Origin: Harriotta raleighana
Lineage: Eukaryota
NCBI GenBank assembly: GCA_050575255.1
Contig: JBNZDD010013496.1
Span: 425,197-489,196 of the forward strand
DNA length: 64,000 nt
Direction of reading: 5' to 3'
Under the pieces are notes generated by a model. It worked only from the letters and a program-made list of their open reading frames with translations. It was not told the origin of the DNA and ran no database searches. Of this stretch, positions 5,625-7,313 are shown piece after piece; within the stretch, counting starts at the first letter, position 1, and every line of letters begins with the position of its first letter. Both the position numbers and the translations under genes were made by a program.

Positions 5625-5739
5625 ATGAACCTGACCAGTCTGCTGATTCTAGCTGTGGGACTTGCTTTAAGTCTCGAAACAGCCCAGTGTAAAGAGCAAC
5701 AGGTGACGGACAACTGGACATGGGACTACAGAGAAGGAG
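5625..5739 (+). CDS. Uncharacterised secreted protein, coding exon 1 (signal peptide)
   Basis: Acceptor tctctttcacag before 5606; ATG at 5625; MNLTSLLILAVGLALSLETAQC|KEQQVTDNWTWDYREG; donor GAG|gtaatg, phase 1. Confidence 0.85.
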
Positions 5740-5939
5740 GTAATGATGGAGGGTGTATCACGGCTGAAATCCCACTCAGCCAATTAAATCCTCATCCTCA
5801 ACTTAACATTTAAGTGCGAGCGAGTGAGCCAGGGAGGGAGGGAACAAGAGAGAGATAGAGAGAGAGGGAGCCTCGGGAAAGAGTGAGGAGCAGAGGGATT
5901 GAGGGCAGTGTCACTCTCCCACAGTGAGTGAATGAGAGA

Positions 5940-6265
5940 GAATAATAATAATAATCGGATTTGAAAAAGTGCTTTTCACGTCTTCTAAACGAATATACTT
6001 CTAACCGAATGAATATACTGTGAAGTGAAATACTGTAAATTTGTGGGCGAAACACAGCAGTCAATTGTGCATGGCAGCGTCCCCCACAAACAGTCGTGGA
6101 TTGAAATGACCAATTGTTATTATTGTATTGTTTTTGGAGGGATTATTATTAGGTGTGTGTGTGTGTGTGGAGTAAGGAAACTTGCCCAAGGTTTTGCACC
6201 TGAAATGCCTGAATTCGAAACACAGGTCTCTAACCGAGTGCTCTAACCACTGAGCTACAGGAGCT
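5940..6265 (-). mobile_element. tRNA-derived SINE
   Basis: Reverse copy ending gctctaaccactgagctacagg. Confidence 0.85.
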
Positions 6266-6338
6266 CCACGAAGGAGTGAGGGAGAGTGAGGAGCAGAGAG
6301 TTTATGCTTTGCTCAGACAGTAATGGCTGTTTCTACAG

Positions 6339-6468
6339 TTGACAAGGTGAACATCCAGGGAGTGAGAAGTGTTTCTAGAGTTCTGGACCATTGGGGGAAC
6401 AGGATCTTCAACACAATGAGAGACAGCATCATCAGCCGCCCCCAGGATATCCTCCCCGACTACTCCAG
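6339..6468 (+). CDS. Uncharacterised secreted protein, coding exon 2
   Basis: ttctacag|TT...TCCAG|gtacac; phase 1 to 2; VDKVNIQGVRSVSRVLDHWGNRIFNTMRDSIISRPQDILPDYSR, in frame with exon 1. Confidence 0.85.
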
Positions 6469-6554
6469 GTACACACACGCTCTACACACACGTATACACT
6501 CGTATACACTTCTCCAGGAACACACACATCTCTACGAATGCGCACATACACGCN

Positions 6555-6660
6555 AGCAGGGCAGTGGGATTAAATCGCTCTTTTCAAAGAGCCGGCACAG
6601 ACTAGATGGGCCGAATGGCCTCCTTTTGTGCCGTAAACTTCTATGAATCTATGAATCTAC
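6555..6660 (+). mobile_element. CR1-type LINE 3' end
   Basis: gatgggccgaatggcctccttttgtgccgtaaac followed by the ttctatgaatctatgaatcta tail; it begins abruptly at n6554. Confidence 0.75.
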
Positions 6661-6976
6661 ATTGATTCATTTAGCTCTTATTTAGCCTTCCACATTGTAT
6701 ATTTAATTGTTATTCCCCTCGTTTTGTATGTGCTAGTTATTTTGTTACATAAGAAAAGCTTGGACCCTCCCTCTCCTTCCTTCCCTCCTGCCTTCATCTT
6801 CCACCACCACCCCTCTCCCTCTCTCCATCCCACTCTTTCTCCTGCCAGCACTATTCTTCTTTGCTCCCCTCTTCTCTCTCTCCCCTTCCCTCTCCCCCTC
6901 CCTTCTGTCTCTCCCTACCTTCCTCTCTCTCACCCTCCGTATCTCTCTCTCTCTCTCCCTCTCTCTCTCTCTGCAG

Positions 6977-7313
6977 GGTCAAGCCACTGTCTGAAGCCCT
7001 GGATGACCTCTTTCGGGAGGTGAAGACGCTGAAGAAACACTTGTTGTTGCTGAACGAGCGGTTGGAGGGTCTCGAGATCAGCCTGACTCCCGTGGGCTTC
7101 GGGAAACCCCCCACGGTGAAACGGGTGGTGATGAGGAGGGTCCCACAGGGAGCCGGGGGTAAGACTATGACCAGGAGAATCGGATTTCAACCCAGAGGGA
7201 GGGTGAGGGTGGCACACAGGCAGCGAAGGCGCCAACGCCAGCCCAGCGCGGCCCACCCCGTCAGTCGGAAGGGGGTTCCCGAGCCTCGCAATTCCACCCG
7301 GTCTCAGATCTAG
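6977..7313 (+). CDS. Uncharacterised secreted protein, coding exon 3 (coiled coil plus Arg-rich tail)
   Basis: Long CT tract then ctgcag|G; VKPLSEALDDLFREVKTLKKHLLLLNERLEGLE...; TAG at 7311-7313; ATTAAA at 7546. Spliced CDS 582 nt, 193 aa. Confidence 0.85.

Follow-up and report, generated by a model that had tools for sequence, protein, structure and literature searches.

A predicted small secreted coiled-coil protein encoded in Harriotta raleighana belongs to an unstudied vertebrate family that is likely missing from mammals

The window analyzed here is a stretch of 64,000 nucleotides from Harriotta raleighana (GenBank assembly GCA_050575255.1, contig JBNZDD010013496.1, positions 425,197 to 489,196 of the forward strand). 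It contains a gene with three coding exons (Table 1), which are joined by GT-AG introns in phases 1 and 2 into an open reading frame of 582 nt that encodes 193 amino acids and carries a single terminal stop. This is the gene model that an earlier note had read from the DNA, and it stands. The GC content at third codon positions is 0.70, compared with a GC content of 0.44 for the window, and exon 2 alone is 88% identical to the Callorhinchus protein A0A4W3JRJ9 (E = 6e-17), which rules out a chance reading frame. The AG acceptor ahead of the ATG implies an additional exon further upstream. Whole orthologs of 181-185 amino acids are encoded uninterrupted across both junctions in assembly contigs of 920-1159 bp, from which we infer that spliced transcripts exist in related fishes.

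A SOUL/heme-binding (HEBP1-like) gene lies tail to tail with this gene, with PF04832 exons ~0.8 kb downstream. An old chicken model of the ortholog was labeled "heme-binding protein 1 isoform X2," which indirectly suggests that the SOUL/HEBP1 linkage probably persists in birds. The window also holds an RBFOX-family gene, which we take to be RBFOX2, with its RRM-start and N-terminal exons near 48200-52500. A further neighbor is an FMC1-like gene, and a scan of 133 selected ORFs revealed an Ig-domain gene and WBP11 on the left. LUC7L2 was considered as a flanking gene and rejected, as the contig gave no LUC7 or UBN_AB match.

Table 1. Positions of the gene, its predicted protein features, and marker genes in the window (position 1 is the first nucleotide of the window)
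Feature	Position	Strand	Basis or remark
Splice acceptor (AG 5604-5605) and short 5' leader ahead of the ATG	5604-5624	+	Sequence
Coding exon 1 (residues 1-38 plus 1 nt)	5625-5739	+	ORF, splice sites
Predicted signal peptide	5625-5690	+	Leader hydrophobicity
Trp segment	5715-5738	+	Trp33 kept in 135/184 cores
Coding exon 2 (residues 39-82)	6339-6468	+	L54, W57, and L77 invariant in 184/184 cores
Amphipathic helix	6362-6433	+	Hydrophobic moment 0.66, residues 48-65
LPDY linker	from 6452	+	Core alignment
Coding exon 3 (residues 83-193 plus stop)	6977-7313	+	ORF, splice sites
Probable coiled coil, five heptads (residues 86-121)	6987-7094	+	Helix pLDDT 84-92 in ortholog model
R-h-x-x-h-E motif inside the coiled coil	7059-7076	+	Residues 110-115
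Basic tail, predicted disordered (residues 123-193)	7098-7310	+	pI 12.0
Basic-aliphatic-basic motif in tail	7119-7139	+	
RQRR in tail	7218-7229	+	Not conserved
Probable polyadenylation signal ATTAAA	7546-7551	+	
SOUL/heme-binding (HEBP1-like) gene	8144-12633	-	Pfam PF04832; synteny marker
RBFOX-family gene	26974-52523	-	Fox-1_C exons 26974-27090 and 33182-33334; paralogon marker

Sequence searches with the Callorhinchus relative recovered three shark proteins and, in the ESM Atlas, clusters named si:ch211-243a20.3 (0.95) and si:dkey-282h22.5 (0.94, 0.93). A search of 1.84 billion yielded 72 representatives at E ≤ 0.001. A profile of 70 sequences matched 227 proteins, 120 of them listed. From 219 sequences we retained 184 unique cores, leaving out 35 partial or duplicate ones, and these fall into three groups. 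Group A (32 cores) includes the window gene, teleost 243a20.3, lungfish and newt proteins, and chicken LOC417962; group B (16 cores) carries the name si:ch211-76l23.4, and group C (136 cores) the names si:dkey-282h22.5 and si:ch73-127m5.3. FastTree gave group A a support of 1.0 (32 rows). IQ-TREE, run on 32 selected rows with one picked row missing from the core set, supported group A (13 rows) and group C at 100/100 and the pairing of the window protein with Callorhinchus at 100/97; the trees left the monophyly of group B unresolved. The window and Callorhinchus proteins are 74% identical over 151 amino acids. Judged by sequence, the window gene is the ortholog of zebrafish si:ch211-243a20.3 (ENSDARG00000092240) and chicken LOC417962. 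These two entries and A0A4W3JRJ9 bear clone-based or database names with no function attached; they share the core motifs, whereas their tails differ in length and sequence, and the Callorhinchus model lacks the Trp segment of exon 1 that the window protein has.

The listed matches span chimaeras, sharks, rays, bichir, sturgeon, gar, bowfin, teleosts, coelacanth, lungfish, salamanders, frogs, lizards, snakes, turtles, and birds. Groups A and C both occur in amphibians and birds, and group C also in reptiles. For group B, the rows with a name (10 of the 16 cores, to which a Callorhinchus fragment can be added) come from fishes alone, a weak hint of a fish-only range. No mammal appeared among the 108 named proteins of the 120 listed (227 matches in all), nor among those clusters that carried a name (26 of the 30 looked up). 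The nearest neighbors of 42 unnamed representatives and 20 assembly proteins were fish, amphibian, reptile, or bird proteins at 47-100% identity, with the reservations that a few unnamed proteins near 47-50% are not assignable and that clustering can hide members. One record (P0120) labeled "Mustela" was rejected as a mammal: it also bears the name Oreochromis niloticus, and its protein falls into one cluster with that of O. aureus and shares 96% identity with one from Neolamprologus. Together, these data suggest that the family is likely missing from mammals. Lamprey likewise gave no family match among the named matches (120 listed of 227) and the clusters looked up.

No known family emerged from the searches. 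Pfam returned no family for the three exon pieces or the Callorhinchus protein, and none of the named ESM Atlas clusters gave a usable link to one. The best hit of the PDB profile search (E = 0.0047) was to the neck repeats of CLEC4M, with no stretch passing alone, and it was rejected as a generic coiled-coil match. Foldseek gave no matches, and the VIA structure search found generic helices only (best Z 5.3, rmsd 16.3 over 77 residues). The earlier note had called the product an orphan that recalls uncharacterized fish secreted proteins, fits no gene that it could name, and is perhaps absent from mammals. The orphan label is wrong, given orthologs from sharks to birds and two paralogs in the same genome; kinship with the uncharacterized fish proteins (si:ch211-243a20.3 and si:dkey-282h22.5), the lack of a well-characterized family, and, among the named matches, the apparent absence from mammals all agree with our results.

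The Harriotta genome holds one gene of each group. The group C gene lies on one contig; for group B, exons 1 and 2 and the matching exon 3, the latter on a separate 2.6-kb contig, were paired because a single Callorhinchus protein matches them at 95 and 83% identity. The invariant core L-x-x-W ... LP is common to all three genes, as are the intron positions and their phases 1 and 2. An N-glycosylation sequon and Phe at two a positions set paralogs B and C apart from group A, as does an invariant Cys in paralog C. The RBFOX C-terminal domain was found on three contigs, namely C13496 (the window), C13587 (group B exons 1 and 2), and C13579 (group C); thus, in an assembly of 13,732 contigs, every family gene (3/3) has an RBFOX gene on its own contig, at distances of ~20 kb, 1 Mb, and 0.5 Mb. 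The shared intron phases and the RBFOX linkage of all three point to ohnologs from the early vertebrate genome duplications, and this origin is probable for the three paralogs on the sequence evidence.

The protein begins with a hydrophobic leader, the first 11-residue Kyte-Doolittle windows averaging 2.1 and 2.7. In the scanned range, small residues occupy positions -3 and -1 only as an A/S pair after residue 16 and an A/C pair after residue 22. The latter is the cleavage point AQC|KE proposed in the earlier note and fits the (-3,-1) rule; the secreted-type leader proposed there recurs as a hydrophobic window in 163/184 family cores. Groups B and C conserve an N-glycosylation sequon in 150 of 152 cores, and the Cys of group C is present in 136/136. 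Such a pattern is expected of secreted oligomers and was counted for that reading; the mature window protein has no Cys in residues 23-193. The gene thus likely encodes a small secreted protein, probably cleaved after residue 22.

Conservation is confined to residues 33-121, where the previously noticed Trp segment, LDHWGNRIF, LPDYSR, and a heptad run are all present. Twenty alignment columns are at least 90% conserved across the 184 cores, with L54, W57, and L77 invariant, and the conserved columns fall in an amphipathic helix, the LPDY-R linker, and a run of five heptads whose d positions hold Leu (d93 in 183/184, d100 in 177/184, and d107 in 182/184 cores). Salt bridges are predicted between g96 and e101 in 164/184 and between g110 and e115 in 158/184 cores, and the coil has hydrophobic residues at e94 and g89; these features fit a parallel coil of an order above dimer. 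The motif R-h-x-x-h-E favors trimers in coiled coils. It occurs in its strict form in 50/184 cores, the window protein included, and as [RK]-h-x-x-h-E in 156/184; the strict form is found in only 12/32 group A cores. The hydrophobic moment of residues 86-103 is 0.61. In an AlphaFold2 model of a shark ortholog, two long helices (residues 34-61 and 76-111) are followed by a coil tail, with a mean pLDDT of 68.7 and a pTM of 0.28, which suggests that the monomer has no compact fold. The coiled coil proposed earlier is therefore borne out by the heptads, the g-e pairs, and the modeled helix. It probably forms a parallel oligomer, with a trimer favored by the motif, the salt bridges, and the hydrophobic e and g positions.

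All available expression data come from orthologs in other species. In the available tables of one study, 243a20.3 and 282h22.5 show higher expression in intermuscular bone than in muscle, in both bream and carp (PMC11689531). In tails of runx2b-null zebrafish, with the sign taken as mutant over wild type from that paper's text on clec3bb, the values are +1.43 for 243a20.3, +2.40 for 282h22.5, +2.03 for the tenocyte gene clec3bb, and -5.13 for scpp1; 76l23.4 changes in the opposite direction to the first two (-1.65) (PMC11689531). According to the accessible tables of a second study, 76l23.4 marks cluster Scl6 (25.9 versus 1.4% of cells), which by its top markers corresponds to the fin mesenchymal cluster of that paper; the markers beside 76l23.4 include and1, and2, fbln1, and and4, and none of the other zebrafish names, 243a20.3 and 282h22.5 among them, appears in the 52-hpf fibroblast marker tables (PMC10651129). 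The accessible part of a third study places 243a20.3 in hypodermis and iridophore rows and as a marker of the unnamed cluster 42 (72% of cells), 282h22.5 in a hypodermis row, and 76l23.4 in basal-cell (basal-epidermis) and scale-forming-cell rows (PMC10495112). Chicken LOC417962, in the part of the report at hand, falls in the utero-vaginal junction (oviduct mucosa) after mating (PMC4625885); this signal possibly stems from a gene model merged with HEBP1. None of the four zebrafish names occurs in the supplements on cranial neural crest of PMC8748784, and the supplements of PMC12875611 gave no match. The published fish tables place the three genes mainly in connective tissue, namely intermuscular bone and myoseptum, hypodermis, and fin mesenchyme, with further expression outside fibroblasts. 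Under the zebrafish, Ensembl, or LOC names, mostly open literature yielded no dedicated study. Another literature match to the clone names proved to be a BAC marker.

Behind the core (pI 6.1 for residues 23-122), the tail is strongly cationic, with 20 Lys and Arg versus 2 Asp and Glu in residues 114-193. The basic tail and its convertase-type sites described earlier (KR130-131, RR135-136, RR148-149, and RQRR163-166) are present as read; the release of cationic peptides from it is not supported. If the protein were a propeptide, convertases would trim the tail and free cationic antimicrobial or heparin-binding peptides. Consistent with this are the pI of the tail, the net charge of +5 to +7 of its segments, the expression of orthologs in skin, and the retention of KR130-131 in four aligned cartilaginous-fish relatives. 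Dibasic sites also exceed the counts in shuffled tails in group B (15/16 versus 7.7) and slightly in group C (123/134 versus 108.8), but not appreciably in the window's own group A (28/32 versus 27.5). RX[KR]R, however, is under-represented across the family (18/182 tails versus 43.3 expected from shuffles), as is RxxR in group A (15/32 versus 25.3), and the RQRR of the window protein is found in just 1/13 cartilaginous-fish group A rows. The retained KR is followed by Val, a residue that convertases disfavor directly after the cleavage site, and the conserved part of the protein is the supposed pro-region rather than the supposed peptide. Tails range from 18 to 177 amino acids (20-177 in group A) and align only poorly, while their net charge is at least +3 in 172/182; what the alignments point to as conserved in the tail is its charge, not a cleavable peptide. 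The heparin consensuses XBBXBX and XBBBXXBX are both missing from the window protein and are not enriched in group A (7/32 versus 8.5 in shuffles), XBBXBX being enriched in group C only (59/134 versus 18.9). A basic-aliphatic-basic motif exceeds shuffles in groups A (15/32 versus 0.8) and C (76/134 versus 1.1) and is absent from group B (0/16), but it was picked after viewing the alignment and its counts are inflated by related species, so it serves as a lead only. We consider the propeptide explanation improbable.

The reading that we propose, and that we regard as just as apt to be right as wrong, is a small secreted, probably trimeric matrix protein that has no globular head and is held in place by its cationic tails. 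Connective-tissue cells would secrete it after signal cleavage at residue 22, and the conserved coiled coil would join probably three chains in parallel. The invariant face formed by the helix and linker (T/S51, L54, W57, I61, L77-P78, Y80, and R82) may be part of the bundle or a partner-binding surface. The tails would hold the bundle electrostatically on sulfated proteoglycans or acidic phosphoproteins of the matrix, where, next to collagen fibrils, its role could be structural or that of an adaptor. The expression with matrix genes, the heptads, and the charged tails were counted for this reading; the scarcity of the strict trimer motif in group A, the missing heparin consensuses of the window protein and their lack of enrichment in group A, and, in the accessible tables, the iridophore row of 243a20.3, the basal-epidermis and scale-forming-cell rows of 76l23.4, the opposite change of 76l23.4 in runx2b-null tails, the absences from the 52-hpf fibroblast and cranial neural crest data, and the oviduct signal of chicken LOC417962 speak against it. 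Alternatively, fibroblasts might release the protein as an oligomeric paracrine ligand or ligand antagonist whose tail limits its spread on heparan sulfate. The invariant residues cluster in the N-terminal helix and linker, outside the heptad core, suggesting a constraint beyond the needs of a plain structural stalk. The protein is also small, its orthologs are regulated by thyroid state and runx2b in the available data, and Proxima, a secreted fibroblast factor of similar profile that is absent from mammals, has positional expression as far as its report is accessible. Group A, on the other hand, has neither a mature Cys nor a known ligand fold, and the co-expressed neighbors in the accessible tables are mostly matrix genes; a ligand is a real possibility, although a rather unlikely one. 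The two amphipathic helices, with hydrophobic moments of 0.66 and 0.61, and an all-helical model with no tertiary fold would also suit an apolipoprotein-like binder of lipids or surfaces. The strict 3-4 spacing of the heptads and their g-e salt bridges, as opposed to 11/22-mer repeats, the lack of an apolipoprotein Pfam match, and the pointers to connective tissue in the accessible expression tables make this highly improbable.

The headless matrix protein can be extended to its paralogs in a bolder model, which we regard as unlikely yet worth stating. The three ohnologs would be chains of an unrecognized jawed-vertebrate matrix complex, forming coiled-coil homo- or heterotrimers that organize collagen fibers in myosepta, hypodermis, and fin fibers (actinotrichia and ceratotrichia). 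Group B would have been lost at the fin-to-limb transition, like the actinodins, and groups A and C together in the mammalian line. If true, the complex would fill a gap in what makes up the connective tissue of fish, amphibians, and birds.

The window gene itself is an ordinary ortholog of an annotated, unstudied gene. A secreted family with invariant residues, for which we found no Pfam model, name, or study, is nevertheless a gap in the vertebrate matrisome, and in this one all three copies have been retained since the early jawed vertebrates. Its apparent absence from human and mouse is probably why it has been overlooked. Should it prove to be a matrix organizer, it would bear on tendon ossification and fin fiber formation in fish and on the connective-tissue differences between regenerating vertebrates and mammals. 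Because zebrafish has all members, the question is open to knockout.

Among known systems, the axolotl protein Proxima (AMEX60DD052276) invites comparison. In the available part of its report, Proxima is secreted, has no known domain and no Foldseek match, is found across vertebrates but not in mammals, and is expressed in fibroblasts and dermal connective tissue (10.64898/2025.12.15.694399). Its gene number falls between those of axolotl WNT4 and CXCL12 in the accessible data of PMC12875611, which would place it in a different region from the RBFOX loci if axolotl gene numbers track the order along the chromosome and synteny is preserved. As far as the report is accessible, Proxima has a conserved C-terminal domain, in contrast to the variable C terminus of the window family, which is modeled as coil, and a lamprey ortholog, whereas none is among the named matches of the window family (120 listed of 227). 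That Proxima is the gene of the window family is quite doubtful.

Actinodins (and1-4) are fin-fiber proteins that were lost in tetrapods. Fin mesenchyme expresses the group B gene together with and1, and2, and and4 in the accessible tables of PMC10651129, and the named rows of group B are all from fishes; amphibians and birds, by contrast, have retained groups A and C.

In its predicted signal peptide, short and probably oligomerizing coiled coil, and basic stretch, the window protein resembles the tetranectin family and the matrilins. The tetranectin family (CLEC3A, CLEC3B, and CLEC11A) and the matrilins are trimeric matrix proteins. In the available fish tendon and bone tables, clec3bb shifts together with 243a20.3 (PMC11689531). 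Unlike these proteins, the window protein lacks a globular head such as a C-type lectin or vWA domain: we found no C-type lectin domain with conserved disulfides, no Pfam family, and no Cys in residues 23-193. The window family is therefore not a member of the tetranectin or matrilin families, and the comparison is a working analogy only. Within that analogy, the heptads and the motif are present in the sequence and may form a trimerizing coiled coil, and the protein may act as the stalk and basic stretch do in tetranectin or the matrilins, with no globular head attached.

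The group-B paralogue of the window gene (si:ch211-76l23.4) is divided between contigs, with exons 1 and 2 on C13587, where this part of the gene stops next to a run of Ns, and the matching exon 3 on the 2.6-kb contig C5888. In the group-C paralogue (si:dkey-282h22.5/si:ch73-127m5.3), intron 1 extends over ~12 kb, compared with 0.6 kb in the window gene.

Within the window, local duplicates of 40–169 bp (87–100% identical) flank five of the seven single-N positions, and such repeats duplicate two exons of the neighboring SOUL/HEBP1-like gene. The duplicates at these five positions are probably artefacts of assembly joins.

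Between the SOUL and RBFOX-family genes sits a two-exon gene, which we label FMC1/C7orf55-like; no LUC7 match was found on the window contig, C13496. In the Ig-domain gene directly upstream of the window, no fewer than five exons encode Ig domains, and four of these exons are near-repeats of 114 residues. The tRNA-Val(CAC)-like sequence may represent the head of a SINE. Other fragments, which resemble a broken LINE reverse-transcriptase region, gave no Pfam match.

Features in the window and in retrieved genome stretches outside it (L-numbers)
Feature	Position	Strand	Remark
Group-B paralogue pieces	L004:1-1357, L010:9716-10000 and L003
Group-C paralogue	L018/L016 (C13579:977957-991898)
Ig-domain gene	L005:134-8147 and L006:3704-4048	-	left of window
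WBP11 exon	L007:6244-6513		left of window
tRNA-Val(CAC)-like sequence	window 2414-2487
Three clustered tRNA-Leu genes (AAG, TAG, AAG)	window 13982-14730		between SOUL and FMC1-like genes
FMC1/C7orf55-like gene	window 16605-17668	-	weak Complex1_LYR_2 match
Putative LINE-like fragments	window 48918-49975	-
Single-N positions with local duplicates	window 8144-8406, 9852-10304, around 17881, around 51246, around 57100

Among the homologues, P0120, an Oreochromis niloticus record, bears the name Mustela putorius furo in NCBI nr, likely a mislabel. Compared with the window gene, the Callorhinchus orthologue in UniRef (A0A4W3JRJ9) lacks the exon-1 Trp segment. Its residues directly ahead of exon 2 resemble the in-frame translation of the end of window intron 1 (window 6290-6340). 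This UniRef model probably extends into the intron.
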